Shown here piece after piece: positions 7,609 to 53,895 of a stretch of 64,000 bases of DNA. The stretch is from Corallococcus coralloides (GTDB lineage Bacteria; Myxococcota; Myxococcia; Myxococcales; Myxococcaceae), in NCBI RefSeq assembly GCF_044792175.1, contig NZ_CP172866.1; one strand, written 5' to 3'. Positions within the stretch are counted from its first letter, which is position 1. Each line of letters opens with the position of its first letter. The position numbers were made by a program, and so were the translations under genes. Below the pieces are notes generated by a model. It was not told the DNA's origin. It did no database searches and saw only the letters and a list, made by a program, of their open reading frames with translations.

Positions 7609-7838
7609 AGACTTCGTGACCGGAAACGTAGGTGCTGTCCCACCCGTCGCGTCGCGCGCCTCCAAGGGCCCGGAAGTGCGAGCGCGTGATGGGCTTTTGA
7701 CAAGGGTAAGAGGGGGAAATGCCCTTCTTGGAAGGAATGAGAAACCCTTTCCGCCGTTGCGCGTCCTAGTGACAGGTGGACGCGGTTCGTCGGGGGATTC
7801 ATCGCGTCCGGCAGTTACGAACGGAAGGACGGGAAATC

Positions 7839-8579
7839 ATGGCCAACTCGACGAAGTACGCGGCAGAGGGCCTTTCGCATTACCTGCGTCACCTGGGCGG
7901 GCACCAGCAGCTCACGCGTGAGCAGGAGTACGAGCTGGCCCGCCAGGCCCGCAAGGGTGACGAGAGCGCCCGACAGACGCTCGCCAGCTCCAACCTCGCT
8001 TTCGTGGTCGCCGTGGCGAAGAAGTTCGCCAACCGCGGGGCCCGCCTGGACGACCTCATCCAGGAAGGCAACGTCGGCCTCATGAAGGCCATCGAGCACT
8101 TCGACCCGAAGAAGAACGTGCGCTTCGCCACCTATGCCGTGTGGTGGATCCGCGCCTACATCACCCGCTACCTGAAGGACAACCGCAGCCAGGTGCGCGG
8201 CGGCGAGGCGGAGCGCGGCAGCATGGTGGACTTCTCGCTGGACGCCACCATCGACGAGGAGGGCGAGACGACCTTCCTCGACCGGCTGGAGGACGGCGGT
8301 CCCTCCCCGCAGGAGTCGTTCCTCTCCCGCGAGCAGGACACCGAAATCCAGGACGCGCTGGCCAAGGTGCGCAAGCGCATTGGCGACCTGGGCTGGGACA
8401 TCCTCCAGGAGCGCCTCACGCAGGACAAGCCGCTGACGCTGGAGGAGCTGGGCCAGCGCTGGGGCGTGTCGCGCGAGCGCGTGCGCCAGGTGGAGCTGAA
8501 GACGAAGAACTTCCTGGAGCGCTACCTCATCGCCTTCAACGAGAACGAGGAGCACACCGCCACGGCCGACGCGGCCTGA
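7839..8579 (+). CDS. RNA polymerase sigma-70 family factor, RpoH-like (group 3)
   Basis: Region 2 (FATYAVWWIRAYITRY) and region 4 (LEELGQRWGVSRERVRQVE). ATG at 7839 is preceded by GGAAGGACGGGAAATC. Confidence 0.8.
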   Translation: MANSTKYAAEGLSHYLRHLGGHQQLTREQEYELARQARKGDESARQTLASSNLAFVVAVAKKFANRGARLDDLIQEGNVGLMKAIEHFDPKKNVRFATYAVWWIRAYITRYLKDNRSQVRGGEAERGSMVDFSLDATIDEEGETTFLDRLEDGGPSPQESFLSREQDTEIQDALAKVRKRIGDLGWDILQERLTQDKPLTLEELGQRWGVSRERVRQVELKTKNFLERYLIAFNENEEHTATADAA

Positions 8580-8614
8580 AGCGGACGGGCGCAAGCAGCT
8601 TCTGTCGCATCGCT

Positions 8615-8666
8615 GACGGGACCTGGCGGGGTGTTCGCACCTTGCCGGTCCCGTCTTCTTTTTTGC
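8615..8666 (+). terminator. rho-independent terminator after the sigma factor gene
   Basis: Hairpin GACGGGACC...GGTCCCGTC followed by TTCTTTTTTG. Confidence 0.7.
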
Positions 8667-8725
8667 CGCGCTGCGTCTGGCGCGTTCGGTTGATGGTAGG
8701 CGAGCGTGCGTGCTAAGGCTTTTCG

Positions 8726-9466
8726 ATGCGCTTGAAATTGCTTGCCCTTTGGGTGCTTTGGGCCGTCCCGGCACACGCCGCGGATCCCGCGCTGCTCGAC
8801 CAACTCGACGCGTTGTACGCGAAGCGCGGTGACGCCGAGTCCGTGAAGGCGCTGGACACGCAGGTGTCCGAGGCGCTCAAGGCCGCGCCGGACGACTTCG
8901 ACCTGGCGTGGCGCAAGGCCCGCATCCTCCAGTGGCAGGCGGACGGCGCCACGGAGAAGAAGCTGAAGATGGTCCTGGGCAAGCAGACCTGGGAGGCCGG
9001 CGACAAGGCGGCGAAGCTCCAGCCGGCGCGCGTGGAGGGGTACTACTTCGCCGCTTGTGGCATCGGCTCCTACTCGCAGGCCGTGGGCATCATGAAGGCG
9101 CTGGGCGACGGGCTGGAGGGCAAGTTCAACGAGCGCCTGGACACCGCGCTGAAGCTCGACGCCACGTACGAGTACGGCGGTCCCTGGGTCGTGAAGGGGC
9201 GTTATTTCTATGAGTTGCCCTGGCCCAAGCGGGACCTGGGCAAGTCCGCCGAGTACTACCAGAAGGCCATCGCCAAGTTTCCGCAGTCGCTGCGCGCGCA
9301 CTACTACCTGGCCGAGACGTTGCTGAAGGACGGCAAGGCGAAGGAGGCGAGCGCGGCCATCGAGAAGGTCAAGCAGGGAAGCACCGCGTACAACCCCGCG
9401 GAGGGGCAGCGCGTGCAGCAGTGGGCCAAGAAGGTGGATGCCGACATCCAGGAGGAGCTCAAGTGA
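8726..9466 (+). CDS. secreted TPR-like repeat protein (hypothetical)
   Basis: Signal peptide MRLKLLALWVLWAVPAHA and helical repeat character. Confidence 0.65.
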   Translation: MRLKLLALWVLWAVPAHAADPALLDQLDALYAKRGDAESVKALDTQVSEALKAAPDDFDLAWRKARILQWQADGATEKKLKMVLGKQTWEAGDKAAKLQPARVEGYYFAACGIGSYSQAVGIMKALGDGLEGKFNERLDTALKLDATYEYGGPWVVKGRYFYELPWPKRDLGKSAEYYQKAIAKFPQSLRAHYYLAETLLKDGKAKEASAAIEKVKQGSTAYNPAEGQRVQQWAKKVDADIQEELK

Positions 9467-11331
9467 GGGCAGAGAGTCAGGTCACGACGGCTCCCGCGGC
9501 GGGCGGGACGCAGGAGCAGAACCTCGTCCAGTTGCTCGTTCAGCGGGCCCAGAACGCCTCCAAGGTAGGCGTGACGCACAAGAAGGACGGGCGCTGGCAG
9601 GACGTCACGTTCGCGCAGGTGCTGGAGGACGTGAAGGCGCAGGCGGCGGGCCTCATCGCCCAGGGCGTCCAGCCCGGGGACCGGGTCGCCATCTTCGCCA
9701 ACACCAGCTTGCAGTGGATCATCGCGGACCTGGCCATCAGCGCGGCCCAGGCCATCACGGTGCCCATCTATGGCTCCAACACGCCGGATGAGTGCCGCTA
9801 CGTCCTGAACCACTCGGAGACGAAGCTGCTGCTCGTCGACAACGACGAGAAGGACGCCAAGCAGGCGGGCCGCCTGTCGCGCGTGCGCTCCAAGCTGGCG
9901 GACATCCCCTCGCTGCAGAAGATCATCGTCTTCGAGGGCCCGGTCTCCGGCGACAAGGAGATGTCGCTCGCGGACATGGTGGCCTCCGGCAAGGGGCAGC
10001 CCCAGGCCGCCGAGTCCGCGTTCGCCGAGCGCGTGGCGCAGGTGAAGTCGGACGACACCAACCTGCTCGTCTACACCTCCGGCACCACGGGCGACCCCAA
10101 GGGCGTCATCCTCACCCACGGCAACTGGGCCTATGAAGCGAAGGCCACCCAGGCCATGGGCATGATGAAGCCGGAGGACTCCGTCATGCTGTTCCTGCCC
10201 CTGGCGCACGTGTTCGCCCAGGTGGTGAAGGCCGCGTGGCTGTCCATGGGCTTCCGGCTGATCATCGCGGAGTCGGTGGACAAGCTGCTCGCGAACCTGG
10301 CGGAGACGCGCCCCACGGTGCTGCCGTCCGTGCCGCGCGTGTTCGAGAAGGTCTACAACAACGTCGTGGCCAACGGCTCCGCCGCGCCCGGCGTGAAGGG
10401 CAAGCTCTTCAAGTGGGCCTTCGGCCTCTTCGACGAGTACGCCGAGGCCAAGGGCCAGGGGCGCGAGTACGACACGCTGATGTTCAGCCTGGCGAAGAAG
10501 CTCGTGTTCTCCAAGGTGCGCAAGACGCTCGACGAGAAGCTTGGCGGCAACATGCGCATCTTCATCTCCGGTGGCGCGCCGCTGTCCCGGAAGATCGCCT
10601 ACTTCTTCGACCTGCTGGAGCTCAAGGTCCTGGAGGGCTACGGCCTCACGGAGACGAGCGCTCCGTGCAACGCCAACCGGGTGGAGAAGATCAAGATCGG
10701 CACCGTGGGCCCGCCGGTCCCGGGCACGGAGATCAAGATCGCCGCGGATGGTGAGATCCTCGTGCGTGGCCCCTGCGTGATGAAGGGCTACTACAAGAAC
10801 CCCGCCGCCACCGCGGAGGTGCTGGAGCCGGACGGCTGGTTCCACACCGGCGACATCGGCGAGGTGGACTCCGACAACTACCTGCGCATCACCGACCGCA
10901 AGAAGGACATCATCGTCACCGCGGGCGGCAAGAACGTGGCGCCGCAGAACATCGAGAACACGCTCAAGACCTTCCCGCTCATCAGCCAGGCCATGGTGTA
11001 CGGCGACAAGCGCCCGTTCCTCGTGGCGCTGATCACCGTCTCCGAGGAGCCGGCGCGCAAGCTGCTGGAGGAGAAGGGCATCGCGGTGGGCACCTACGCG
11101 CAGAACTCCCAGCGGCCGGAGATCAAGGCGGCCGTCGAGGAGATCATCAAGAAGGTGAACGCGGAGATCCCCCCGTACTCCAGCATCAAGAAGATCGCGG
11201 TGATGGACGCGGACTTCACGCAGGAGACCGGTGAGCTCACGCCCACCCTCAAGGTGAAGCGCAAGGTCGCCAGCCAGAAGTACATCAAGACCATCGACGC
11301 CATGTACGAAGGCGCCAAGGTCATGGACTGA
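9463..11331 (+). CDS. fadD: long-chain fatty acid--CoA ligase (AMP-binding, FadD type)
   Basis: AMP-binding motif YTSGTTGDPKGV and GYGLTETS. GTG start at 9463 behind GGAGGAG, overlapping the previous stop. Confidence 0.8.
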   Translation: MRAESQVTTAPAAGGTQEQNLVQLLVQRAQNASKVGVTHKKDGRWQDVTFAQVLEDVKAQAAGLIAQGVQPGDRVAIFANTSLQWIIADLAISAAQAITVPIYGSNTPDECRYVLNHSETKLLLVDNDEKDAKQAGRLSRVRSKLADIPSLQKIIVFEGPVSGDKEMSLADMVASGKGQPQAAESAFAERVAQVKSDDTNLLVYTSGTTGDPKGVILTHGNWAYEAKATQAMGMMKPEDSVMLFLPLAHVFAQVVKAAWLSMGFRLIIAESVDKLLANLAETRPTVLPSVPRVFEKVYNNVVANGSAAPGVKGKLFKWAFGLFDEYAEAKGQGREYDTLMFSLAKKLVFSKVRKTLDEKLGGNMRIFISGGAPLSRKIAYFFDLLELKVLEGYGLTETSAPCNANRVEKIKIGTVGPPVPGTEIKIAADGEILVRGPCVMKGYYKNPAATAEVLEPDGWFHTGDIGEVDSDNYLRITDRKKDIIVTAGGKNVAPQNIENTLKTFPLISQAMVYGDKRPFLVALITVSEEPARKLLEEKGIAVGTYAQNSQRPEIKAAVEEIIKKVNAEIPPYSSIKKIAVMDADFTQETGELTPTLKVKRKVASQKYIKTIDAMYEGAKVMD

Positions 11332-38660: not shown

Positions 38661-39290
38661 TCAGGTGTCCAGGAAGTCGAAGCTGCGGTAGAGGCCGCGC
38701 AGCGTCTGGCTCTCCGTGACGATCTGGTCCATGTCCACGTCGTCGCTCGTGGTGGGCAGCGCCTGGACGATCTGGTCGTTGAACGCGAGCCCCACGCGGC
38801 GGCTGCGCGGGCTGGCCGCCTTGAGGGTGGCGTCGTAGTAGCCACCGCCGCGCCCCAGCCGCTTGCCGTCCGGGCTGAAGCCCAGTCCGGGCACCACGAA
38901 CAGGTCGATCTGATCCACCGGAATCAGGTCCGAGGAGTTCGTGGGCTCACGGACGCCCAGGCGCCCCGGCTCCAGCTCGCTCTCCGACTTGATGGCCCGG
39001 AAGGCCAGGATGCGCCCGTGCACGTGGGACAGCGGGTAGCAGACGATCTTCTCGTCCTGCAACGCCGCGATGAGGATGTCCCGGGTGGGCACTTCGCCCC
39101 GGATGGGGGCGTAGAGCGCCACCGTCCGCGCCTTGTCGTAATAGGGCGATGCCAGGAATCGAGACTGGACCTTGAGGCCCCGCTCGTCGATGAGGTCGTT
39201 GGTCATCGCCTTGCGGCGCGCCGTCAGTTCCTCACGAAGCGTTACCTTCTTCTCCGCCGCCGCCGCCGTATCCACCGCCGTCTCGCTCAC
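38661..39290 (-). CDS. 5-formyltetrahydrofolate cyclo-ligase (MTHFS, YgfA-like)
   Basis: 209 aa with GLGFSPDGKRLGRGGGYYD. GTG start with GGAG 9 nt upstream. Confidence 0.8.
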   Translation of the reverse strand: MSETAVDTAAAAEKKVTLREELTARRKAMTNDLIDERGLKVQSRFLASPYYDKARTVALYAPIRGEVPTRDILIAALQDEKIVCYPLSHVHGRILAFRAIKSESELEPGRLGVREPTNSSDLIPVDQIDLFVVPGLGFSPDGKRLGRGGGYYDATLKAASPRSRRVGLAFNDQIVQALPTTSDDVDMDQIVTESQTLRGLYRSFDFLDT

Positions 39291-39309: not shown

Positions 39310-39500
39310 GAGTCCCCCGCCGAGCCGTGTGTCCAGCGTCCATTGAACCCTTAGAAGCCAGGTGGGGACCGAAATCATGTCACCGCAGGCTTCCCTCATC
39401 CCCGGTGAAGGGGGAGGGCTTGCACATGGCGACCGAAACGGACCCCGGAATGGACGTATCGGTTCGAATTTCTGCTGGGCATCACGCACCCCGCAGGGAA
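39310..39500 (-). ncRNA. candidate 6S RNA (ssrS) upstream of the ygfA-like gene
   Basis: 190-nt non-coding stretch with lower GC and several hairpins (for example CCCTCATCCCC-GGTGAA-GGGGGAGGG), directly upstream on the same strand as the MTHFS gene. The 5' and 3' ends are partly complementary. The ssrS-ygfA linkage is a known synteny. No coding ORF here is plausible. Confidence 0.3.
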
Positions 39501-39661
39501 CAGACCTTTTACCACTCAAATCGTGCTGCAAGTCCTTAGAATTACTGGGAAAATCCCAGGGCGTTCTGGGAAAATGATAAGGATGGAGAAGCGTGCGGTC
39601 AAGCCGTCCTCGCGCGTTTACAAGCCGCCCCGTGGACTTCTATGATGCCCGGGTCCCCGAC

Positions 39662-41953: not shown

Positions 41954-43099
41954 TCAGCCTCCGAGCGCGCGCACCCGGGGCACGTGCGTGCACAGCGCGT
42001 CCACGACGCGAGCGACCTCCGTGCCGGTGGTGCCGGGGCCCAGGCTGAAGCGCAGGCTCGCGCGCGCGTCGGCGGGGGAGAGGCCCATGGCGCGCAGCAC
42101 GTGGGACGGGGACAGCGTGCCGGACGCGCAGGCCGCTCCCGACGAGACGCGGATGTCCTCCAGGTCCAGCGCCATCAGCAGCGCTTCCCCCTCCACGCCG
42201 TCGAAGCGCAGGTTGCTGGTGTTGGGCACCCGGGGCGCGCCCGCGCCGTTCACCGTGACGCCGGGCAGCCGCTGGAGCACCTGCTCCTCGAAGGTGTCGC
42301 GCAGGGCGGCGACCCTCGCGGCGGTGCCGGGCTGCTCCTCGGTGGCCAGCTCCAGGGCCAGGGCCAGGGCCTCGGCGTAGGGCACGTTCTGCGTGCCTCC
42401 GCGCCGGCCTCCCTCCTGGTGCCCGGGCGTCAGCGCCCGCACGTCCACGCCCTTGCGCACCACCAGCACGCCCACGCCCTGGGGGCCTCCGAACTTGTGC
42501 GCGGAGAGGGAGAGGAGGTCCGCGTCCACTTCGCGCAAGGTGAGCGGCACCTTGCCCGCGGCCTGCACGGCGTCCGTGTGGAAGAGGATGCCTCGTTGAC
42601 GGCACGCGCGCGCGGCCTCCGCCACCGGCTGCAGCACGCCCGTCTCGTTGTTGGCCCACATCAGCGAACACAGCGCGGTGTCCGGCGTGAGCGCCTCCAG
42701 CACGGCCTCCAGCGGGACACGGCCGTTGGCGTCGGGGGACAGCCGCACCACCTGGGCGCCGTCCTTCTCCAACTGCGTGAGCCCGCCCAGCGCGGACGGG
42801 TGCTCCACCGTGGTGGACACCACGCGGCGGCGGTCCTTCACCGGGCGGGCCGCGTACGCTCCCACCAGCGCGAGCGCGTCCGCCTCGCTGCCCGACGCGG
42901 TGAAGGTGATCTCCTTCGGCTCGCAGCCCAGGACGCGCGCCACCTTCGCTCGCGCCGCGTCCAGCCGGGCCCGGGCTTCGCGCCCGCCGCCGTGCACGCT
43001 GGACGCGTTGCCGAAGCCTCCTTGTGTGAAGGCGCGGGCGAGCAGGGCGCCCACCTCCGCGCGCACCGGCGCGGCGGCGTTGTGGTCCCAGTAGATCAC
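41954..43099 (-). CDS. cysteine desulfurase (IscS/NifS family, PLP-dependent)
   Basis: GTG start giving VIYWDHNAAAP. PLP-lysine region SLSAHKFGGPQGVGVL and C-terminal SSGAACASG. Confidence 0.85.
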   Translation of the reverse strand: MIYWDHNAAAPVRAEVGALLARAFTQGGFGNASSVHGGGREARARLDAARAKVARVLGCEPKEITFTASGSEADALALVGAYAARPVKDRRRVVSTTVEHPSALGGLTQLEKDGAQVVRLSPDANGRVPLEAVLEALTPDTALCSLMWANNETGVLQPVAEAARACRQRGILFHTDAVQAAGKVPLTLREVDADLLSLSAHKFGGPQGVGVLVVRKGVDVRALTPGHQEGGRRGGTQNVPYAEALALALELATEEQPGTAARVAALRDTFEEQVLQRLPGVTVNGAGAPRVPNTSNLRFDGVEGEALLMALDLEDIRVSSGAACASGTLSPSHVLRAMGLSPADARASLRFSLGPGTTGTEVARVVDALCTHVPRVRALGG

Positions 43100-44217
43100 G
43101 TGTCCTGCGCGGACAGCAGCGACACCGGCCGCTCCTCGGAGACACCAAAGGCTTCGAGGAAGCGCGACACCACCTCGCGCTTGAGCGCCTTGCGCTTGTT
43201 CGCGCTGCCGGACAGGGGCAGCCGCGCGCCGGCCATGCTGCCGTGGCCGCCGGACGAGCCGCCCAGGTCCTCGCACAGCTCACGGATGAGGCGGCCCGCG
43301 TTCATGCGCCGGTCCTTCACCCGCAGGCTCAGGAAGAGCTGGTTGCGGAACGTCCCGTACGCCAGGGACCACTTCATCCCCTCCAGGTACATCATCCGCT
43401 CGGCGACCTCCGCCACCAGGTCCGGGGAGTAGACCTCCTCCAGGTCGGTGATGATGGCGGTGCCGTAGACCTTCGCCTTCTCGATGGACGTGTGGAAGAG
43501 CTGGAAGAAGCGCGCCGGCAGCTCCGGGTGTTCAATCTGTCCCAGGAGCTGCTTGTCACAGCGGGGGAACAGCCACAGGTAGCTGTCCACGTCCGTCTGG
43601 GTCGTCTCACGGCCCAGGTCCCGCGTGTCCGCCTTGATGCCGTAGAAGAGCGCGGTGGCGATCTCCACGGACGGCTCCAGCCGGGCGGCCCGCAGGTACT
43701 CCACCAGCATGGTGGAGGTGGCGCCGAAGTCGCCGCCCACGTCCGCGAAGGGGGCCAGCAGGCTCTCCTCGCGCAGCGGGTGGTGGTCCACCACCAGGTC
43801 CGCGCGGTAGCGCGCCGGCAGCGAGTGGTTCCTCACCGGCGGCTGCGTGTCCACCAGACCGAAGAGGTCGTACTGGCTGAAGTCGATCTGCGACACGTGC
43901 GACACCGGCAGCCGCAGCACGCGCACGAAGGCGACGTTCTCCGCCCGGCCGATGATGCCGCCGTAGCCCACGTGGGCCTCGATGCCGGCCTTGCGCTCCA
44001 GCAGGTGGGCGAGCGACACCGCCGCCGCCATGGAGTCCGGGTCCGGGTTGTCGTGCGTGAGGATGAGCGCCCGGCGGTGCCCCTTGGCCACCTGGAGCAG
44101 GCGGGCCAGCTTGTCGGTGGCGGGCAGCTTGGCCAACCGCGCTGGCGGAGGCTCCGTGAGCTCGCTCCCGGCAGGCAACTGGGCGCGGCGGCTTTGGAGG
44201 GATGGGGTGACAGGCAT
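43096..44217 (-). CDS. DHH/DHHA1 family phosphoesterase (NrnA-like)
   Basis: DHH motif (VVDHHP), a C-terminal GGGH motif, and a 4-nt overlap with the cysteine desulfurase start. Confidence 0.8.
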   Translation of the reverse strand: MPVTPSLQSRRAQLPAGSELTEPPPARLAKLPATDKLARLLQVAKGHRRALILTHDNPDPDSMAAAVSLAHLLERKAGIEAHVGYGGIIGRAENVAFVRVLRLPVSHVSQIDFSQYDLFGLVDTQPPVRNHSLPARYRADLVVDHHPLREESLLAPFADVGGDFGATSTMLVEYLRAARLEPSVEIATALFYGIKADTRDLGRETTQTDVDSYLWLFPRCDKQLLGQIEHPELPARFFQLFHTSIEKAKVYGTAIITDLEEVYSPDLVAEVAERMMYLEGMKWSLAYGTFRNQLFLSLRVKDRRMNAGRLIRELCEDLGGSSGGHGSMAGARLPLSGSANKRKALKREVVSRFLEAFGVSEERPVSLLSAQDT

Positions 44218-44409
44218 GGGGACTCTTCTTTTACTTCCTCCGGCACAGGGATTCGAGAAGTCGGATGTTCTCCCCGTAACGTTCCGGAAAGGGTGTTTCC
44301 AACACCCCAATGGTGTCGACGTGCCGCGCGTTCTTCACGCCGCGGCGGAGGACGGGCGGGACGCCTGCCTTCTCGCCAGTCCTCCGGGAGCACGCCGCCC
44401 CGGACCGCG

Positions 44410-45249
44410 CTACTCCACCGTCTTGTACTTGCGGCCGAGGTCGCGGAAGTACTTCACGCCGTTGTCCAGCGAGTTCTCCATCGCGTCCATCAGCACCGTG
44501 CGGAACGTGGCCACGGGCGCGCGGAAGGACTCGTAGTAGCGCTGCCGGTCGATGGAGTGGATGACCGCGGGCATGTAGCCGTTGCGCAGCAGGATGAGGT
44601 TGCTGCACATGCGCCCCACCTTCCCGCTGTGCTCGGTGAAGGGGAAGATCTGCAGGAACTCGTGCTGCACCACCGCCGCCTGCTTGATGGGGTGGAACTC
44701 GCGGAACTCCGCGCTGGCGGTGTGGTCCACGAGCTTCTCCAGCCGGGCCTGGATCTTCGCGGGCTGGGTGATGTCGTGGAAGTAGGTGCGGTGCAGGGGC
44801 ATGTCCTTGCGCAGCCCCGCGCGGTCGCGCTCCTTGGCCAGCTCCTTCTCCGTGCGCTCGCGGCGCTCCATGCGCGCACGCTCGGCCAGCGCTTCCGGCG
44901 TGTTGCCCAGGAAGAGGTCGTGCATCCGCTTGATGGTGGTGAGCGTGAGCGCGGACTGCTTCTTCGCGCCCGCCGCCTCCTCGCGGATGTAGTCCGCCAC
45001 GGCCTTGTGGTTGCGGATCTCCAGCACCACCGGGATCATGGAGGCTTCGGCCGCGGTGCGCTCCGGGAAGAGCGCGGCCATCAGCTCCTGGTGCGTGTAC
45101 ACGACGCCTTCGAGCGCGGCGTCGTGGTAGATCCACGACATCTCGAAGCGGTCGAGGTACTCACGCGCAGGCGGCTTGCCCTTGTAGATCTCAAGGTACT
45201 CGCGCAACTGCTCGTTCTTCTCGTCGATGTCCTGGTAGCGTTCCTTCAC
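44410..45249 (-). CDS. Fic/Fido-fold protein with degenerate active-site motif
   Basis: 279 aa. Fic core region ...QHEFLQIFPFTEHSGKVGRMCSNLILL lines up with HPFx[DE]GNGRxxR, but the catalytic His is replaced by Phe and GNGR by HSGK. N-terminal DAALEG helix. Confidence 0.6.
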   Translation of the reverse strand: MKERYQDIDEKNEQLREYLEIYKGKPPAREYLDRFEMSWIYHDAALEGVVYTHQELMAALFPERTAAEASMIPVVLEIRNHKAVADYIREEAAGAKKQSALTLTTIKRMHDLFLGNTPEALAERARMERRERTEKELAKERDRAGLRKDMPLHRTYFHDITQPAKIQARLEKLVDHTASAEFREFHPIKQAAVVQHEFLQIFPFTEHSGKVGRMCSNLILLRNGYMPAVIHSIDRQRYYESFRAPVATFRTVLMDAMENSLDNGVKYFRDLGRKYKTVE

Positions 45250-45369
45250 GGACTGCGGCTCCTTCTCGCCCCGGCCCGCCCCGGGCGCTGGTTCCCAGAG
45301 GCTGCGCCGGGAGGTACAACGGCACGGAGAGTCTAGAAATTCCGCGCGGTTGGAACAAATAAAACCTGA

Positions 45370-46707
45370 CTACAGATTCACCAGGAACACCTCGCAGGCC
45401 TGGTCCAGCAGATCTTTTGAAAGGGCTGGCGGGATTTGCCGGTATCGGGCGGCGTCCCGGATGAGCGACACGAGGTCGCGGGGGTGGCAGGAGCGCATCT
45501 CCATGCTGCGCGGCTTGTAGTAGTGCTCCACCAGGTAGGTGATGGCCTGGTCCACGTAGGGGATGCCCGCCGCTTCGCACACCCGGCGGAAGATCTCCCG
45601 GTAGGACTCCTCATCCGGGTTGCCCACTTCGATCTTGTACTTGATGCGCCGCAGGAAGGCCTCGTCCACCAGCTCCTTGGGGTCCAGGTTGGTGGAGAAG
45701 ACGAGGAGCTGATCGAAGGGAATCTCGAACTTCTTGCCGGTGTGCAGGGTGAGGAAGTCCACCCGCTTCTCCAGGGGGACGATCCACCGGTTGAGCAGGT
45801 CCGTGGGGTGGACCTTCTGGCGGCCGAAGTCGTCGATGAGGAGCATGCCGCCGTTGGCCTTCACCTGGAACGGCGCCTCGTAGAAGCGGGTGCTCTCCGA
45901 GTAGATGAGGTCCAGGGTCTCCAGCGTCAGCTCACCGCCCACCACCACCGCGGGGCGCCGGCAGAGCGACCAGCGCTTGTCCATTTCGAAGGTCTGCCGG
46001 CGGCCGTTGGCGTCGCGGCCCACCTCCAGCGACACGGGCGTGTGGATGATGCGGTCGAAGACCTTGATGATCTGGTTGTCGATTTCCAGGCAGTGCGGGA
46101 CGAAGACCTCGCCGCCGAACATGTGGGAGATCGCCTCCGCCAGGCTCGTCTTGCCGTTGCCCGGCGGGCCGTAGAGGAAGAGGGAGCGGCCGGAGTTCAC
46201 CGCCGGGCCCAGCTTGTCCATCAGCTCCGCGGAGACGGTGAGGTGCCCCAGGGCGGCGACCAGGTCCTCCTGGCCCACGACGGGCGTCTCCTCCGTCTGG
46301 CTGCTGATGAGCGCGTTGTACTGCTCGATGGGCACGGGGGCCGGGCCCACGTAGGTGGAGCGGGTGAGGGCGTCGCGCGCGTACTCGCGGCCCTTCTCCG
46401 TGAGGGCGAACTCCACGGACGCGCGGCCAAAGCCCTTGCCGCCGCGCAGGTCCACGAGCTTCTCCGCGGCGAGGAAGTCCACCACGTGCTCCACCACGCC
46501 GGACCAGGGCAGGCACATGCTTTCGGCGATGGCCACGCCCGTGCCGGTGCCGGCGTAGTAGAGGAACTTGAGGCCCAGGTCCGCGAGCAGACCCATCCTC
46601 AATCCCGTGTCCTCCAGCGACTTCGGCTCACCCGGAGCGATGTCGAGGACGGACGGGTTCTCCAGCTTGAAGGGATTGTCTTCGTACGCGTAGCCGGCGG
46701 GAGGCAT
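45370..46707 (-). CDS. classic-clade AAA family ATPase with N-terminal winged-helix-like domain
   Basis: Walker A GPPGNGKTS, Walker B LLIDDFG, sensor-1/second-region-of-homology STNLDPKELVDEAFLRRIKYKIEV. Confidence 0.75.
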   Translation of the reverse strand: MPPAGYAYEDNPFKLENPSVLDIAPGEPKSLEDTGLRMGLLADLGLKFLYYAGTGTGVAIAESMCLPWSGVVEHVVDFLAAEKLVDLRGGKGFGRASVEFALTEKGREYARDALTRSTYVGPAPVPIEQYNALISSQTEETPVVGQEDLVAALGHLTVSAELMDKLGPAVNSGRSLFLYGPPGNGKTSLAEAISHMFGGEVFVPHCLEIDNQIIKVFDRIIHTPVSLEVGRDANGRRQTFEMDKRWSLCRRPAVVVGGELTLETLDLIYSESTRFYEAPFQVKANGGMLLIDDFGRQKVHPTDLLNRWIVPLEKRVDFLTLHTGKKFEIPFDQLLVFSTNLDPKELVDEAFLRRIKYKIEVGNPDEESYREIFRRVCEAAGIPYVDQAITYLVEHYYKPRSMEMRSCHPRDLVSLIRDAARYRQIPPALSKDLLDQACEVFLVNL

Positions 46708-46766: not shown

Positions 46767-47717
46767 TCAAACGTAGGTCAGCCAGTCCGCATAGCGGGCT
46801 TCCTGGCCCCGCACGACGCGGAAGTACATGTCCTGGACGAACTTGCTGATGGGGCCGGGCTTGCCGTCGCCAATCTGCCGGTTGTCCACCTCGCGCACGG
46901 GGGTGATCTCCGCGGCGGTGCCGGTGAAGAAGACCTCGTTGGCGATGTAGAGGGCGTCACGGGTGACGGTGACCTCCTCGATGGTGGTGTGGCCGGCGTC
47001 GCGCAGCAGCTTGAGCACCGTGTCGCGGGTGATGCCGTCCAGGACGGGGGAGGAGAGGGGCGGCGTCTTGATGACGCCCTTCTTGTTCACCATGAAGATG
47101 TTCTCGCCGGAGGCCTCCGCGACGAAGCCGCTGATGTCCAGGAGGATGGCCTCGTCGTAGCCGGCCATCACCGCCTCGCGCTTGGCGAGGATGGAGTTCA
47201 CGTACTGGCCGGTGATCTTCCCGCGCACCATGTTCACGTTCACGTGGTTGCGCGTGAAGGAGCTGACCTTGGCGCGGATGCCTTCCTTGATGCCCTTGTC
47301 GCCCAGGTACGCGCCCCAGTCCCAGGCGGTGATGCCCACGCGGGTGGGGTTCACCGCGCCCAGGCCCATGGCGCCGTCGCCCATGAAGGCGACCGGGCGC
47401 AGGTAGGCCCCGTTGGCGAACTGCGCCTTCTGCTTGCGCAGCAGGTCCAGCGTGGCCTCCACCAGCTCGTCCTCGGTGTAGGGCATCTGCAGCATGATGA
47501 TGTGCGCGGAGTCGAGCAGGCGGCGGATGTGCTCGCGCAGGCGGAAGACGGCGAGCCGGCCATCGTGGGTCTTGTAGGCGCGGATGCCCTCGAAGACGCC
47601 GAGGCCGTAGTGGAGGGCGTGCGTCATCACGTGCACGTTGCCCTCGTCCCATTTCATCAGCTTCCCATCGAGCCAGATGTGTTCGGCGCGCAGCACGGTG
47701 GATGAGGTCGAGCTCAT
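46767..47717 (-). CDS. ilvE: branched-chain amino acid aminotransferase
   Basis: Fold-type IV PLP enzyme; EGIRAY and other IlvE hallmarks. Confidence 0.9.
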   Translation of the reverse strand: MSSTSSTVLRAEHIWLDGKLMKWDEGNVHVMTHALHYGLGVFEGIRAYKTHDGRLAVFRLREHIRRLLDSAHIIMLQMPYTEDELVEATLDLLRKQKAQFANGAYLRPVAFMGDGAMGLGAVNPTRVGITAWDWGAYLGDKGIKEGIRAKVSSFTRNHVNVNMVRGKITGQYVNSILAKREAVMAGYDEAILLDISGFVAEASGENIFMVNKKGVIKTPPLSSPVLDGITRDTVLKLLRDAGHTTIEEVTVTRDALYIANEVFFTGTAAEITPVREVDNRQIGDGKPGPISKFVQDMYFRVVRGQEARYADWLTYV

Positions 47718-47839
47718 CGGGAAGTTCCTCTCGGGCTAGGGTGGGACGGCTTGGGCCTTGTACCCAGGCACCCTGGGGACGCAAAGCGTGAAACGCCAAC
47801 GATCGGCGTTCCACGGTCCTTCCCTCGCAGCGCCCTGCG

Positions 47840-48814
47840 TCAGGCCTGGGCGATGGTGGGCAGGTTGGCGCGGGCCTTCTCGATGTCGCCCTCGTATTTG
47901 AGGACGAGGTTGAGCGTGGCGGCGACGACGTCCGCGCTGAGCGCTTCCGCGTTGAGCAGCGCCAGGCTCTGCGCCCAGTCCAGCGTCTCGCTGATGGACG
48001 GGGCCTTCTTCAAGTCCAGCGCGCGGATGGCGGCGATGGCCTCCACCACCTGCTCGGCCAGCACCTGGGGGAGCTCCGGGAGGCGCGCCCGGACGATTCG
48101 CAGCTCGCGCTCGCGGTCCGGGAAGTCGATGTGCAGGTGCAGGCAGCGGCGCTTGAGCGCGTCCGACAGCTCGCGGGCGTTGTTGCTGGTGAGGATGACG
48201 CGCGGGATGTGCTTCGCCCGGATGGTGCCCAGCTCCGGCACCGTGACGGCGTTGTCAGACAGGACCTCCAGCAGGAAGGCCTCGAACTCCGGATCCGCCT
48301 TGTCGATTTCGTCCACCAGCAGCAGGGCGGGCGTGTCCGAGAGCTGGGCCTGGAGGATGGGGCGGGGGAGCAGGAAGCGTTCGGAGAAGAACACCGCGTC
48401 CCCGGACGCGAGCCGGTCCGCGGCCTCCGCCAGCGTGGACGTGCCCTGGGTCAGCTCGCCAATCTTGTCCTTGAGCAACTGCGTGTAGAGCAGTTGCTTG
48501 GCGTACTCCCACTCGTAGAGGGCCTTGGCCTCGTCCAGGCCCTCGTAGCACTGGAGCCGGAGGAAGGTCCGGTCCAGCGCCTGGGCCAGGGCCTTGGCCA
48601 GCTCCGTCTTGCCCACGCCGGCCGGGCCCTCCACCAGGATGGGCTTGCCCATCCGGTCCGCCAGGAACACGGCGGTGGCGATTTCAGGGGACGACAGGTA
48701 GCCCACCGCCTCCAGGCGACGCGCCGCGTCCTCCACGCTGGTGAACGAGCGGATCTCCGAGGTCAGTTGAGGGGGGCTCACGCGCGTCAACTTAACCGAC
48801 GGTTCCGTCCCCAC
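47840..48814 (-). CDS. MoxR-family AAA+ ATPase
   Basis: ILVEGPAGVGKTELAKALA Walker A, LLLVDEIDKADPE Walker B, and the MoxR sensor region. Confidence 0.8.
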   Translation of the reverse strand: MGTEPSVKLTRVSPPQLTSEIRSFTSVEDAARRLEAVGYLSSPEIATAVFLADRMGKPILVEGPAGVGKTELAKALAQALDRTFLRLQCYEGLDEAKALYEWEYAKQLLYTQLLKDKIGELTQGTSTLAEAADRLASGDAVFFSERFLLPRPILQAQLSDTPALLLVDEIDKADPEFEAFLLEVLSDNAVTVPELGTIRAKHIPRVILTSNNARELSDALKRRCLHLHIDFPDRERELRIVRARLPELPQVLAEQVVEAIAAIRALDLKKAPSISETLDWAQSLALLNAEALSADVVAATLNLVLKYEGDIEKARANLPTIAQA

Positions 48815-49290: not shown

Positions 49291-52200
49291 CTACTTGTCG
49301 AGCTCGTCGACGAGCGCCGTCCAGTCGTCCTCACCGGCTTCGGGGGCGGTGGGCAACTGCATCACCATGGTGCGCTCCGGGGCCTCCTCGTCCACGGGGA
49401 CGGGGGTGGGCGCCGCCTTCTTCGCGGCCGGCTTTGCGGCGGCCTTGGCCGGAGGCTTGGCGGCTGCCGGGATGACCGGGTTGGCCTGGACGGTGGCGGC
49501 CAGGTGCTCGTCCTCGGGGGCCTTGGCGCCGGCCTTCGCGGCGGGGGCGGCGGCCGCGGCGGGGGCCTTGGTCTTGTAGCGGGCCAGCTCCAGCTCGGCG
49601 ACCTTGAGCGCCTTGCTCTTCTCCTGGACGGACGTCTGGAGGCGGGCGACCTCCTGGGCCTTGATGGCCTCGCGGCGCTCGAGCTCCGCCTTCTGCTTGG
49701 CGTTGAGGTCCTCCAGCTCCTTGGCCTGACGGGCCTCCAGGTCCTTGCGCTCCTTCTGCGCCGTGGCGAGCCTGGCGGCCGCCTCGTTGGCCTTGGTCTC
49801 CGCCGCGGCGACGCGGGCGTTGAGGTCCTTCTCCGCGCGGGCGCGGGTGCTCTGGGCGTTCTCCAGCGCCAGCTCCAGGTCCTGGGCCTTCTTGGTGCGG
49901 GCCTGCAACTGGGCCTGGGCGTCCTTGAGCTTCGCCTCCGTGTCGGCGGCGAACTTCTGGGCCTCCTGGGCGAGCTGGGCGATGCGCTGCTCGGCCTTGG
50001 CGAGCTTCGCGGCCAGGTCGTCCGACTGCTTCTTCGCCTCGGCGGCGGCGGCCTGCGCCTGCTGGGCCTGCTGTTGGGCCTGGGCCTGGGCCTGCTGGAG
50101 CTGTCCGGCCAGCCCGTCGCGCTCGCTGGTGAGCTTCTTCTGCTGGTTCGCGGCCTGCTGGAGCTGTCCGTCGCGGTCCGCGATGGCCTTGCGCGCGCCG
50201 TCCAGCTCGCCGGAGACGTTGGAGAGCTGCTGGTGGAGCGCGTCCGCCTGCTTCTTCGCCTCGGCGGCCTGGTGCTCCAACTGGCCTTCCAGTTGCTTCA
50301 CCTGCTCCGTGCGGGTGGAGACCTCGCGGTTGAGCACCTCCGCCTGACGCATCTTCTCCTGCGTCACGTGCGTGAGCTTGCGGAGCGTGTCCGACAGCTC
50401 CTTGCCCTTGGTGTCGACCTCGTTCTGGAGGAGCTCCTCACGGCGCTGCGACTCGTGGGTGAGCGTCTGGAGGCGGTCCTCCAGGTGGTGCCGCGCGTCC
50501 TCCGTCTGCGCGAGCGTGGAGGACAGTTGCGTGACTTCCGACACGCGCGTGCCCAGCTCGTGCTTGGTGACGATGAGCTGCTCGGCCAGGTCCTCGCCGT
50601 TGGCCTGGGCCTCGGTGAGCTGGCGCGTGAGCTCCGCCTGGGCGCTGGCGGCGGCCTCGCGGGACTGCGCGTGGGCCTGCTCCTCGCGGGCGAGCGCGTC
50701 CTGGGTGCTGGCGAGCTGGCCCTGCGTGTCGGCCAACTGCCGCGAGGTGGCGTTCAGCTCCGCGAACAGGTTGTCGCGCTCGCCGGTGAGGGCGTTGATG
50801 CGCGCGGTGGTCTCCTCCGCGAGCGCCGCGTGGGCGGTGCGCTCCGCGTCGTAGAGCCCCTGCGTCTCGGACAGGTCCGCGCGCAACTGGCCAATCTGGC
50901 CGGTGAGGTCCTGCTCCAGCGCGTCCTTCGCCGTGTTGAGCGCCGCCAGCTCCGCGATGCGCGCGTCGCGCTCCTCGGTGGTGCGGGCGAGGAGGCCGTT
51001 GGTCTCCTGGAGGATGTCGCGCGTCTCGTTGAGCTCCGCGTCCAACTCGTCGCGGTGCGAGGTGACCTTCGCCAGGTCGGCGCGCGTCGACTCCAGGGTC
51101 TCCTGGGTCTGCGTCAGCGTCTGGCTGGTGGCCTCCAGCTCGCCGCGCGTCTCCGCGAGCGTGCCCTCGGTGCTGGAGAGCGTCGCCTGCGTCTCGGAGA
51201 GCGTGGCCTCCGTGCGCGCCAGCGTGTCCTGCGTCTGCGCGAGGGTGGATTCGGTGGTGGCCAGCGTCTGGCTGGTGGCCTCCAGCTCGCCCTGGGTGGA
51301 CGCGAGCGTCCCTTCCGTCTGCGCGAGCCTGGCCTGCGTGTCCGTCAGCGTCTGGCTGGTGGCCTCCAGCTCGCCGCGCGTCTCCGCGAGCGTGCCCTCC
51401 GTGCTGGTGAGCGTGGCCTGCGTGTCGGAGAGGCTCTGGCTGGTGGCCTCCAGCTCACCGCGCGTGGTGGAGAGCGTCTCCTCCGTCTGCGCGAGCTTGG
51501 ACTGGGTGTCCGCCAGGGTCTGGCTGGTGGCCTCCAGCTCGCCGCGCGTCTCCGCGAGCGTGCCCTCGGTGCTGGAGAGCGTCGCCTGCGTCTCGGAGAG
51601 CGTGGCCTCCGTGCGCGCCAGCGTGTCCTGCGTCTGGGCGAGCGTGGACTCGGTGGTGGCCAGCGTCTGGCTGGTGGCCTCCAGCTCGCCGCGCGTGGTG
51701 GAGAGCGTCTCCTCCGTCTGCGCCAGGCGCGTCTGCGTCTCGGAGAGCTGCTGGCTGGTGGCCTCCAGCTCGCCGCGCGTCTCGGAGAGGGTGGCCTCCG
51801 TGTTGGAGAGCGTGCCCTGCGTCTCGGAGAGCTGCTGGCTCGTCGCCTCCAGCTCGCCGCGCGTCTCCGCGAGCGTGGCCTCCGTGCCGGAGAGCGTGTT
51901 CTGCGTCTCGGAGAGCTGCTGGCTCGTGGCCTCCAGGTTGCCGGTCAGCTCGGCGATGCGGGCGTCGCGGTCGGAGACGTCGGTCTGCAGGCCCTCGATG
52001 GTGCCGTCGCGCTGGGTGACGGTGTCCTCGAGCGAGGCCACGCGCGCGGAGAGCTGCTCGCCCTGGCGCTGGGACGCGTCGAGCTGCTCGGTGAGCGCTT
52101 GAATCTGGCCGTTGAGGTCCGCCTCCAGGGCGTCCTTCGCCGCGCGCAGGTCCTCCAACTGGCTGGTGAGGTCCTGCTCCAGCGCGTCCTTGGCCTGCTG

Positions 52201-53895
52201 CAGCGCCTGGAGCTCCGCGGTCAGCTCGTTCTCGCGGTCCTCCAGGTGCGTCTTGACGGCCTCGACTTCGCCTTCCAGCTCACCGATGCGCTCGCGGTGC
52301 TGCTGGATGGTGGCGTTGAGCTCCGCCTCGCTGTTCTCGTTGCGGGCGATGGTCTCCTGCAGCTCGCGGTCGAGCGCGGAGATCTTCGCGTCCCGCTCCT
52401 CCAGGCGCTGCGTGAGGTCCGCCTCCAGGGCGTCCTTGTCCAGCCGGAGCTGGTCGCGCTCGCCGGTGACGCGCGCGATGTCGGACTCCAGGTCCGCCAC
52501 CTGCTGCGTGAGGCGCTGCTCCAGGGCGGCGCGCTCGGCGTTGAGGCGCTCAATCTCCGCGTCCGAGCGGCTGGCGTGCTCCTCCGCCGTGGTGGCCCGG
52601 GCCTCCAGGCCGCGCACGGTGGCGTCGCGCTCCTGCTCCGTCTGGGTCAGCCGCTCCTGGAGGGCCTGCAGCTCGCCGTCCAGCTCGGCGTAGCGCTGGT
52701 CGCGCTCGCTGACGGTGCGGGCCAGCTCGGACTCGAACTGATCGCCGCGCTCGCGCAACTGGAGGATGTCCGCCTCGTTGGCGCGGACGGTGTCCTGGAG
52801 CTTCTGCTCCTTGACCTCGAACTCCAGCGTGACGACGCCGAGGTGCTTCTCCAGCTTGTCGAACTCGTTGCGCCAGCTCTCCAGGTCCGCGCCGCGCCGG
52901 GCCAGCTCCTCGTCGCGGAGGTTGACCTCCTTGCGCAGGACGTTGATGTCCTTCTCCTTGGAGGCGACGACCTCGATGAGGTCCTTCTCCGAGGAGAACT
53001 TCTGGAGGAGCAGGTCGTCGACGGTGGCGCCGTGCTCGCGCTCCTTCTGGACGATGGACTGCTGCGCGTCGTTGAAGCGGCGCAGCAGGTCGTCCACCTG
53101 CATCTTCAGGCCCTGCAGCTCCACGTCCTTCTCGTGGAGGCGGTCCTCGACGGAGAGCAGCTCGCGCTCGCGGACGCTCCAGATCTCCGACAGGCGCGCG
53201 AGCTGGGCTTCGCGCGTCTTCAGCTCGTCCCGGAGGATTTGAATCTTGCCCTCGGGCGTGCCCATCAGCTCGCGGCGCGGGGGCGGGCGCTTGAGCTGAC
53301 GCGACTCCGCCAGCAGCTCCGCCTTGCGGTCCGCGATGGACGAGAAGGCCCGGTCCATGAAGGCCTTGTCCTCGTCCGTCATGGCGCTGCGGCGCTCGCG
53401 CTTGGGCAGCTTGGGCGGGGCGCCCGTGCGCACGCCGGGCATGGGCGGCGGGGCTTCACGCGGCTGGCCGGAGAGCGCGGCGTCCAGGTCCGCGTCGGAC
53501 TCGTCGGAGCCGGGCGGCACGATGCCCGCGCTCATGGAGGCCAGCTCGCCCATCTCGAACGGGATGACGAGGTAGCCGTCCGCGGCGGCCGGCGTCTCAC
53601 GGTGTTTGTTCAGACCCTCCACACCGGAGTCGGAGGAGAGCAGGAGGACCTTCAGGTTCTGGCCCCACTTGCCCTTCTTGATCTGCCCACAGAGGGCGAA
53701 GCCGGACTGGTCCGGCAGCTCCGCGCGCACGACGACGAGGTCGGGTCGGCGCTTCTCCAGCTCCCGCTGCGCGTCTGACGCAGTGGTGGCCATGGCCGTG
53801 TTGTAGCCCGCGCTCTTGAGCACGGAGGCCATGCTGAGTGCGAAGTCGTTCTGGCTTTCGACGATGAGGACGCGACGCTCCATGAAGCCCTTCAC
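49291..53895 (-). CDS. response-regulator receiver domain fused to a very long coiled-coil (AglZ/FrzS-like architecture)
   Basis: N-terminal CheY-like receiver (VLIVESQNDFALSMASVLKSAGY...) followed by about 1300 aa of heptad-repeat coiled coil and an Ala/Pro/Lys-rich tail; 1534 aa. Confidence 0.8.
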   Translation of the reverse strand: MKGFMERRVLIVESQNDFALSMASVLKSAGYNTAMATTASDAQRELEKRRPDLVVVRAELPDQSGFALCGQIKKGKWGQNLKVLLLSSDSGVEGLNKHRETPAAADGYLVIPFEMGELASMSAGIVPPGSDESDADLDAALSGQPREAPPPMPGVRTGAPPKLPKRERRSAMTDEDKAFMDRAFSSIADRKAELLAESRQLKRPPPRRELMGTPEGKIQILRDELKTREAQLARLSEIWSVRERELLSVEDRLHEKDVELQGLKMQVDDLLRRFNDAQQSIVQKEREHGATVDDLLLQKFSSEKDLIEVVASKEKDINVLRKEVNLRDEELARRGADLESWRNEFDKLEKHLGVVTLEFEVKEQKLQDTVRANEADILQLRERGDQFESELARTVSERDQRYAELDGELQALQERLTQTEQERDATVRGLEARATTAEEHASRSDAEIERLNAERAALEQRLTQQVADLESDIARVTGERDQLRLDKDALEADLTQRLEERDAKISALDRELQETIARNENSEAELNATIQQHRERIGELEGEVEAVKTHLEDRENELTAELQALQQAKDALEQDLTSQLEDLRAAKDALEADLNGQIQALTEQLDASQRQGEQLSARVASLEDTVTQRDGTIEGLQTDVSDRDARIAELTGNLEATSQQLSETQNTLSGTEATLAETRGELEATSQQLSETQGTLSNTEATLSETRGELEATSQQLSETQTRLAQTEETLSTTRGELEATSQTLATTESTLAQTQDTLARTEATLSETQATLSSTEGTLAETRGELEATSQTLADTQSKLAQTEETLSTTRGELEATSQSLSDTQATLTSTEGTLAETRGELEATSQTLTDTQARLAQTEGTLASTQGELEATSQTLATTESTLAQTQDTLARTEATLSETQATLSSTEGTLAETRGELEATSQTLTQTQETLESTRADLAKVTSHRDELDAELNETRDILQETNGLLARTTEERDARIAELAALNTAKDALEQDLTGQIGQLRADLSETQGLYDAERTAHAALAEETTARINALTGERDNLFAELNATSRQLADTQGQLASTQDALAREEQAHAQSREAAASAQAELTRQLTEAQANGEDLAEQLIVTKHELGTRVSEVTQLSSTLAQTEDARHHLEDRLQTLTHESQRREELLQNEVDTKGKELSDTLRKLTHVTQEKMRQAEVLNREVSTRTEQVKQLEGQLEHQAAEAKKQADALHQQLSNVSGELDGARKAIADRDGQLQQAANQQKKLTSERDGLAGQLQQAQAQAQQQAQQAQAAAAEAKKQSDDLAAKLAKAEQRIAQLAQEAQKFAADTEAKLKDAQAQLQARTKKAQDLELALENAQSTRARAEKDLNARVAAAETKANEAAARLATAQKERKDLEARQAKELEDLNAKQKAELERREAIKAQEVARLQTSVQEKSKALKVAELELARYKTKAPAAAAAPAAKAGAKAPEDEHLAATVQANPVIPAAAKPPAKAAAKPAAKKAAPTPVPVDEEAPERTMVMQLPTAPEAGEDDWTALVDELDK
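51090..51945 (-). repeat. intragenic tandem repeats (84-bp / 28-aa units RGELEATSQxLxxTQxxLxxTExTLxxT) with a 180-bp exact segment duplicated about 400 bp apart
   Basis: About ten 28-aa units. A 60-aa segment (RGELEATSQTLATTESTLAQTQDTLARTEATLSETQATLSSTEGTLAETRGELEATSQTL) occurs twice verbatim at nt 51513-51693 and 51114-51294. Confidence 0.8.

Follow-up and report, generated by a model that had tools for sequence, protein, structure and literature searches.

Fic proteins have been studied almost wholly as AMPylating toxins, as effectors and as FICD, the metazoan regulator of BiP. A locus of Corallococcus coralloides (Myxococcota) raises the question of what a protein of this fold might do once its catalytic histidine has gone, and whether it does so together with the ATPase encoded next to it. 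The locus lies in a stretch of 64,000 nucleotides of contig NZ_CP172866.1 (the window; G+C content 70%), where open reading frame, profile and structural comparisons place a histidine-less Fic-fold protein of 279 residues, with a putative FICD-like class II architecture, at 44410-45249 and a 445-residue AAA+ ATPase at 45370-46707, both on the minus strand. The original prediction, made from the DNA letters, had given these two reading frames, the length of the ATPase, their common strand and the gap of 120 bp between them, all of which are borne out; it had offered for the pair a pseudo-enzyme or adaptor, an enzyme with altered chemistry, a regulatory pair, or a toxin/antitoxin-like or defence-like module. 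As judged from sequence comparison, the Fic protein appears to belong to a FICD/HYPE-like (class II) subfamily of the Fic fold that is so far undescribed and is centred on the Myxococcota, and almost certainly does not carry out the usual AMPylation.

A Fic fold without the catalytic histidine

The fold itself is well-supported. The Pfam Fic family (PF02661) matches the protein over profile positions 2-93 of 93 with 43.7 bits (cut-off 24; E 5.1e-11), and a "Fic family protein" of Corallococcus exercitus is 99% identical to it. Among proteins of solved structure, a HMMER search of the PDB gives FICD/HYPE as the closest by sequence (E 2.5e-13). The AlphaFold2 model, built with 47 homologs, has a pLDDT of 91.3 and a pTM of 0.89, and when this predicted structure was compared with the PDB by Foldseek, all 47 matches at E <= 1e-3 were Fic proteins, with FICD/HYPE the best (about 20 entries, TM ~0.75, rmsd 3.1 Å), followed by Fic-1 of Caenorhabditis elegans and BT_2513. 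NCBIfam has no specific model for the protein, which matches there only mobile mystery protein B (17.5 bits).

In place of HPFx[DE]GNGRxxR, residues 202-213 (44611-44646, minus strand) read FPFTEHSGKVGR, the HMMER alignment pairing iFPFTEHSGKVGRmcsNLILL with the canonical motif segment of FICD. Relative to the canonical motif, His is replaced by Phe, Gly by His, Asn by Ser and the first Arg by Lys, such that Phe202, Ser208 and Lys210 correspond to His363, Asn369 and Arg371 of FICD. The general base of FICD is His363, and a salt bridge joins the second Arg of its motif, Arg374, to Glu234 in the inhibitory helix (PMC6826200). The residues kept are Gly209, Arg213 (equivalent to Arg374), Asn217 and Glu47 (equivalent to Glu234); the Mg-binding Asp367 of FICD has become Glu205, at a position that is variable in the subfamily. 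A competent AMPylase or deAMPylase requires HxFx[D/E]GN[G/K]RxxR with its invariant general-base histidine, which FPFTEHSGKVGR does not provide. Nor does the protein resemble the Doc kinases, which are small, flap-less single domains with the motif HxFx[D/N][A/G]NKR: it has neither the His nor NKR, and its 279 residues take in both a flap segment and an N-terminal region like that of FICD. Alignment with PF02661 and with FICD thus upholds the degeneration of the motif that had been proposed. The more specific statement that the catalytic His and the anion hole are both absent holds for the former only, the anion hole being degraded while G209 and R213 remain.

Outside the motif, the likeness to FICD and other class II AMPylases (PDB 6i7k and 4u04; BT_2513, 3cuc), the closest proteins by both sequence and fold, extends to a putative N-terminal inhibitory helix (IYHxxAxEG), the second motif Arg, an Asn four residues later and a C-terminal RxxYY helix. 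The inhibitory-helix-like motif IYHDAALEG (residues 40-48; 45106-45132, minus strand) aligns with IYHTVAIEGN of FICD, Glu47-Gly48 pairing with E234-G235, and differs from the class II pattern (S/T)xxxE(G/N) in having Asp at the S/T position (DAALEG). The protein differs from FICD further in lacking any TPR or transmembrane region, and in its flap: the segment RKDMPLHRTYFH (residues 147-158; 44776-44811, minus strand), which is specific to the subfamily and contains PLHRxYFH, stands in for the FICD flap (RTTQVLVGHH, including Val316) and is the block of lowest confidence in the model (pLDDT 61). Between the two lies an E/R/K-rich insertion, TPEALAERARMERRERTEKELAKERDRAG (residues ~117-143; 44821-44901, minus strand), located from columns 160-195 of an alignment of diverse members (A1) and modelled as helices 118-128 and 134-143. 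The window protein shares it with its closest relatives, and most of the more distant members of the subfamily are without it.

The loss of the histidine is shared by the whole subfamily. A HMMER search of 1.84 billion cluster representatives returned 2232 matches at E <= 1e-3 and 381 at E <= 1e-10, and the motif statistics were taken from the best 150 representatives (clusters at 50% identity), of which 132 have a recognisable motif, down to ~30% identity. His is absent from 130 of these 132, the common pattern being [FYW]P[FWY]xxx[STN]G[KR]xxR; position 1 is aromatic in nearly all (89 F, 35 Y and 4 W), with single cases of A and M and two of H, the latter two being proteins of other Fic families with the ordinary HPFxDGNGR motif (P0377 and P0380, E ~1e-20). 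Position 7 is S, T or N in 127 and position 9 (residue 210) is K or R in 111, whereas position 5, that of the Mg-binding acid, varies widely (K 33, E 29, D 14 and others). In the subfamily GNG has turned into x[S/T]G, and the first Arg of the motif is for the most part Lys. Positions 2 (P), 8 (G) and 12 (R) were set by the search pattern itself; alignments made without this constraint nonetheless show P203, G209 and R213 to be invariant. Also invariant in an alignment of the subfamily (A4) are I40, Y41, H42, L46, E47 and G48 of the inhibitory helix and R147, P151, H153, R154, Y156 and H158 of the flap, R147 and Y156 being so in the diverse alignment as well. The flap motif PLHRxYFH is invariant or nearly so throughout, as are R235, Q236, Y238 and Y239, and Glu47 and Gly48 hold across the subfamily alignments with at most Asp in place of Glu47. 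A catalytic residue relocated within the motif was considered and rejected, since His206 (position 6) and Glu205 (position 5) vary across the subfamily.

The His-less motif was found at all 90 of the loci surveyed and at all six read later (96 in all), and the canonical HPFxxGNGR orthologs that had been named beforehand as the observation that would overturn the prediction are wanting. The loss is a selected state and no sequencing or lineage artefact; the dN/dS of Fic against its orthologs is 0.16-0.44. Our literature searches found nothing specific on a His-less Fic family. A genome-wide survey of Fic and Doc proteins does report motif variants, including a Doc clade in which His has become Gln and which was argued to be retained for function (PMC4454073), and describes no [FYW]P[FW]xxxSGK family. 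The subfamily resembles this clade (D2), AvrB and the Bartonella Beps with degenerate FIC motifs in that the fold has remained under selection after the canonical residues were lost (PMC4454073, PMC8401265). Those proteins are, however, secreted effectors or small toxin-antitoxin toxins with a patchy, horizontally transferred distribution, whereas the present subfamily is a vertically inherited core gene with a motif of its own, AvrB and the Beps being set apart here by their descriptions.

The neighbouring ATPase and the gene array

The 445-residue protein matches the Pfam AAA family (PF00004) with 27.4 bits (cut-off 21.2), the match covering only profile positions 2-42 (41 positions). It has more than 8000 homologs, the best 120 of which are all at least 76% identical, and in the PDB it matches spastin, p97 and NSF best, which makes the proposed label of classic-clade AAA a reasonable one, with the reservation that its Walker B reads LLIDD and not hhhhDE. 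Walker A, GPPGNGKT (residues 180-187; 46147-46170, minus strand), is invariant in an alignment of the family (A5), and Walker B (residues 289-293; 45829-45843, minus strand), with Asp-Asp for Asp-Glu, in both this and a further alignment (A6). Lacking the usual catalytic Glu of Walker B, the protein may hydrolyse ATP slowly or in a regulated manner. A segment resembling the second region of homology, VFSTNLDPKELVDEAFLRRIKYKIEV (the FLRRIKYKIEV stretch), aligns with spastin. Walker A and this segment, which account for the best PDB matches, recall spastin, katanin, p97 and NSF, whereas ~100 residues inserted between the two Walker motifs, the LLIDD sequence and a probable winged-helix N terminus set the protein apart.

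The original prediction left the N-terminal domain of the ATPase without identity, and by Pfam it stays so: the first 137 residues have no significant match (E <= 0.01), the best being PGM1_C at chance level (E 0.056, 13.4 bits). The AlphaFold2 model of the whole protein is poor (pLDDT 49.5), its ATPase core having failed and only the N-terminal and lid parts being usable. Within it, residues ~38-115 (46363-46596, minus strand) are predicted at a pLDDT of ~70-87 as H-E-H-H-E-E-H and give weak Foldseek matches to winged-helix proteins of the MarR, PadR and AspA types, and the domain is tentatively assigned as a MarR-like winged helix. The ATPase family is widespread, very conserved and uncharacterised in its own right, and its members repeatedly have a gene of the DHH family close by (recJ or that for the DHH protein).

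How tightly the two genes are linked was assessed in a one-genome-per-species scan, which yielded 423 relatives, the best 80 of which were analysed (all Myxococcaceae or Archangiaceae and allied metagenome-assembled genomes), and in the contexts of 12 distant members looked up singly. The ATPase gene is adjacent to Fic in 61 of the 94 determinable loci and not adjacent in 33, with three undetermined, and among the best 80 it stands immediately upstream in 57. At about 20 of these 80 loci ilvE abuts Fic directly (with a 29-bp gap in L057), no ATPase gene being found anywhere in the 8-kb flank; in a neighbour-joining tree of the Fic proteins, the loci without it form at least four to five separate groups. 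A deeper lineage (L088-L090), with Fic 45-51% and ATPase 76% identical to those of the window, keeps the order ilvE-AAA-Fic-nfo-DHH, and the adjacency is therefore ancestral and has been lost repeatedly. Further away, a metagenome-assembled "Deltaproteobacteria bacterium" (L092) has a full-length ortholog of the ATPase (60% identity) directly upstream of a 33%-identical Fic, between ABC transporter and peptidase M1 genes; with flanks that are wholly different, the pair has outlived a complete turnover of its surroundings. Members at 35-38% identity, including those of the Polyangia type, have no ATPase gene nearby, their neighbours being argH-lysA, the dcw cluster, nth or unrelated genes.

Viewed from the other side, 80 full-length metagenomic relatives of the ATPase (L094-L173), 44-53% identical to the ortholog in L092, include 59 with enough flank, and none of the 59 has a Fic gene within up to 4 kb on each side. 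About 33 share the order (recJ)-GT2-AAA-GDPD, in which GT2 is a divergent family-2 glycosyltransferase and GDPD a glycerophosphodiester phosphodiesterase; recJ is in the flank of 21. A fusion of the two genes was also sought and rejected, 31 long Fic relatives (340-790 residues) having no similarity to the ATPase; one of the long relatives also has YjeF domains, probably through a read-through fusion. The expectation that the pair would be co-conserved is thus borne out for most determinable loci, the distant L092 included, and fails in at least four to five close clades, in all Polyangia-type members and among the relatives of the ATPase. We read the association as old, probably one of co-transcription, and facultative, with no obligate two-gene module.

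The two genes form part of a longer array on the minus strand, all the same-strand flanks named in the original prediction being present by Pfam. Upstream, a gene for a MoxR-like AAA_5 ATPase (47840-48814) is followed by one for an ilvE-type class-IV (branched-chain amino-acid) aminotransferase (46767-47717; PF01063, 149.7 bits), which lies upstream of the AAA+ gene. The spacer of exactly 120 bp between the AAA+ and Fic genes (45250-45369) contains no consensus terminator and no sigma-70 promoter, and scans for both across 41.8-49.3 kb gave nothing exceeding shuffled expectation. Fic starts at a GTG codon, 7 nt past the ribosome-binding site AAGGAG, and is not translationally coupled to the AAA+ gene. 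Downstream are a DHH/DHHA1 phosphoesterase (43096-44217), whose likely true start, as its orthologs suggest, is the ATG at 44217, and a cysteine desulfurase-like class-V aminotransferase (41954-43276 as the longest reading frame; PF00266, 204 bits, with support from synteny), whose true start is probably near the DHH stop.

In Myxococcus species a gene for a 481-residue patatin-like phospholipase (1646-3091 in L015) sits between the MoxR-like gene and ilvE, and is missing at the matching site of the Corallococcus window (47718-47839). Beyond the array, 6S RNA is encoded at 39310-39502 on the minus strand (Rfam RF00013, 68.3 bits, full length), and directly downstream of it a reading frame of 209 codons (38661-39290, minus strand) is, by eye, a candidate 5-formyltetrahydrofolate cyclo-ligase; if so identified, the two would form the ssrS-ygfA arrangement of E. 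coli. On the other side, 49291-53895 (minus strand) encodes an AglZ-like protein of 1534 residues that opens with a response-regulator receiver domain; its coiled coil is very long and contains many near-identical repeats of ~30 residues that include ETRGELEATSQTL. The strong AT skew at 50-52 kb is due to these repeats.

Repair nucleases beside Fic

In C. exercitus AB043A (L001), an intact gene of 277 codons (8869-9702) begins 32 bp past the Fic stop and encodes deoxyribonuclease IV, Nfo (TIGR00587, 271 bits, cut-off 130). A blastn comparison with this locus shows that the window retains, between Fic and DHH, a 3' remnant of nfo of ~115 bp (44234-44349, minus strand), corresponding to about its last 35 codons, and is without ~740 bp of the gene. 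Of 83 loci compared, 34 have an intact nfo, 18 a fragment that is almost always its 3' end, and 30 none; where intact, it lies 7-48 bp downstream of Fic, or 91-115 bp in the outgroup L088-L090. We take nfo downstream of Fic as the ancestral arrangement, the same gene having decayed repeatedly at one place. The 3' end that is spared may carry signals for the DHH gene, which follows Fic at a distance of at most 1.4 kb in 79 of 80 loci and is the most constant neighbour of Fic among close relatives; for the DHH protein, the PDB contains no relative by sequence. An imperfect direct repeat of 26 nt (44317-44342 and 44436-44461; 73% identity, sharing CGGCGTGAAG on the minus strand) joins the 3' end of the Fic reading frame with the nfo remnant, and may be due to chance or represent microhomology related to the deletion.

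An unrelated nuclease takes the corresponding place elsewhere. In Polyangium jinanense (L091; Fic 7001-8788, nth 8851-9762) and a related metagenome-assembled genome (L093; Fic 5001-6695, nth 6706-7593), the gene for endonuclease III, nth (TIGR01083, 234 bits, cut-off 212), follows Fic by 10-63 bp, both genes lying downstream of a giant Ser/Thr kinase-TPR gene. Polyangia-type Fic proteins are long (370-790 residues), with N-terminal tails of 100-530 residues (for example P0275, P0296, P0298, P0305, P0314 and P0335). The pI of the tail is 10-12 in 22 of 24 long-form representatives, K and R making up 17-38% and A, P, S and T 25-58% of the residues. The tails are of low complexity, without Pfam domains, and are either histone-H1-like, with AKKTAKK-like repeats, or rich in E, R and K. 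That they are rich in lysine despite being encoded by high-GC DNA argues against a spurious extension of the reading frame. The E/R/K-rich insertion of the window protein resembles their charged segments in composition.

Two unrelated repair nucleases following Fic, the polycationic tails, the probable winged helix of the adjacent ATPase and the DHH-family protein together hint weakly at a role of Fic linked to DNA or nucleoid maintenance. In its explicit form, which we think quite doubtful, this proposal makes the His-less subfamily an accessory factor of base-excision repair or nucleoid maintenance in the Myxococcota: non-catalytic or newly catalytic, it would recognise a phosphorylated or adenylated intermediate, be it a DNA end or a protein, and hand it to endonuclease IV, endonuclease III or the DHH nuclease, in many lineages with the help of a winged-helix AAA+ remodeller. 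Several observations count against such a link to DNA: the gene order is that of just two broad lineages, deletion of nfo has recurred, in the window as elsewhere, without loss of Fic, and other members adjoin argH-lysA or the dcw cluster. DNA-associated Fic proteins do exist, and the structures of Coxiella burnetii Fic2 (PDB 8cil) and of a winged-helix Fic of the SO_4266 type (3eqx) are among the fold matches of the present protein; activity induced by DNA binding is reported in one study (PMC10628234). Those proteins have a canonical motif and a DNA-binding domain of their own, whereas in the subfamily described here the putative winged helix is on the neighbouring ATPase, polycationic tails occur only in Polyangia-type members and any DNA binding would be putative. 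Our literature searches found nothing specific on a link between Fic and endonuclease IV.

Mechanism and significance

A probable ortholog is open to genetics in Myxococcus xanthus, where aglZ is MXAN_2991 (PMC4546325) and the branched-chain amino-acid transaminase gene, ilvE, is MXAN_2987 (PMC11980068). In the M. xanthus locus (L015), ilvE, the AAA+ gene and Fic follow in succession with no room for further genes, and from this order and the contiguous locus numbering the Fic ortholog is very probably MXAN_2985. A BarSeq preprint of 2026 lists MXAN_2985 as 'uncharacterized', with viable transposon insertions that are enriched in starvation-induced and depleted in glycerol-induced spores, like those of ltgA (bioRxiv 10.64898/2026.08.28.747804). 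Literature searches for Fic in Myxococcus found nothing specific.

We favour a pseudo-Fic that binds a ligand or partner and does not modify it, a reading to which we give about an even chance. Lacking the histidine, the protein would be capable neither of His-dependent transfer of a nucleoside monophosphate nor of FICD-type deAMPylation, and would most likely act as a non-catalytic binding or regulatory module. The inhibitory Glu47-Arg213 clamp would be retained, and the remodelled, invariant flap PLHRxYFH would form, with the cleft, a recognition surface. The module would often share its expression with a winged-helix AAA+ ATPase and, in the ancestral arrangement, with endonuclease IV; the upstream ATPase would be an old, frequent and facultative neighbour, probably co-expressed, and no obligate partner, toxin or antitoxin. 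The suggestion of a pseudo-enzyme in the original prediction is supported by the Fic fold and by the conservation of the His loss throughout the subfamily. Three considerations weigh on the other side. Residual or alternative catalysis is possible, and the invariant flap residues His153 and His158 could constitute a new active site; IbpA in which the His has been changed to Ala retains residual activity (PMC4454073); and the phenotype of the MXAN_2985 insertions is possibly a polar effect on the DHH gene.

His153, Arg154, Tyr156 and His158 of the flap enter into the alternative that the protein is an active enzyme of altered chemistry, its catalytic centre having re-evolved from the flap together with the Ser, Gly, Lys and Arg of the motif and perhaps serving a hydrolase or phosphotransferase that acts on a nucleotide-containing or phosphorylated substrate. 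The chemistry of the Fic fold is known to diversify, Doc being a kinase (PMC4454073), and the new invariant polar block is exactly where the FICD flap (Val316) covers the α-phosphate, with G209, the largely basic residue 210 and R213 all kept. Conversely, the Mg-binding acid is not conserved, the Glu-Arg clamp, which in FICD is a block to productive ATP binding, appears to be retained, and the flap is the part of the model in which least confidence can be placed. We know of no precedent for a catalytic flap His, and on balance consider this alternative unlikely. A little less so, and compatible with the non-catalytic module preferred here, is a dedicated two-component machine in which Fic is the adaptor or regulator of the winged-helix AAA+ remodeller and the ATPase is required for Fic function. 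Its attraction is that same-strand adjacency with a spacer of 120-320 bp extends from Corallococcus to lineages with 33-51%-identical Fic, and that the pair is kept in L092 amid unrelated flanks. It is hard to reconcile with the absence of the ATPase from 33 of the 94 determinable loci, in several independent clades, with its absence near any Polyangia-type member, with relatives of the ATPase that keep a recJ-GT2-AAA-GDPD context in place of Fic, and with the want of either gene fusion or translational coupling; we therefore regard it as improbable.

Least probable by far, to the point that we give it very little credence, is a toxin/antitoxin-like or anti-phage defence module. It comes to mind because many bacterial Fic proteins are FicTA toxins, and PADLOC does return domain-level matches to PDC-S04 (56.7 bits), SoFic (40.4 bits) and IetA. 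The PDC-S04 score, however, is comparable with that of the generic Pfam Fic family (43.7 bits), the IetA matches of the ATPase span only 24-58 residues round the P-loop, and the conserved array contains neither a near-full-length PADLOC match nor the partner genes of any PADLOC system. The class I FicTA arrangement of an active toxin and a small adjacent antitoxin is not seen either: the catalytic His that Fic toxicity requires is gone subfamily-wide, the putative inhibitory helix is internal (class II), and the neighbours are a 445-residue AAA+ protein and nfo or DHH, with no small antitoxin gene. The array is, moreover, one of housekeeping genes (tyrS, 6S RNA with the candidate 5-formyl-THF cyclo-ligase, ilvE, aglZ), collinear over ~80 species, in which Fic and DHH stay together at all but one of the 80 species loci and the dN/dS quoted above indicates purifying selection. 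Fic diverges as its neighbours do, the most distant loci of the set being 66% identical for Fic, 65% for DHH and 78% for IlvE. Plasmid and phage collections contain no member of the subfamily, returning only generic Fic proteins with at most 28% identity across most of the query length, apart from a phage fragment of 106 residues at 35.5%. Fic is thus a chromosomal core gene, syntenic and non-mobile, in a vertically inherited array, and the suggestion of a toxin/antitoxin-like or defence-like module is not supported.

What remains is an FICD-like subfamily, preserved over a very long period in an entire bacterial phylum, with its catalytic base gone and its inhibitory clamp, so far as the conserved residues indicate, retained. 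It would represent either a clean natural Fic pseudoenzyme or a re-invention of chemistry on the Fic scaffold. A concrete lead is offered by the polycationic tails and by the recurrence, next to Fic, of two base-excision-repair nucleases that are unrelated to each other, and a probable ortholog is at hand in the genetically tractable M. xanthus, with viable mutants and a reported sporulation phenotype.

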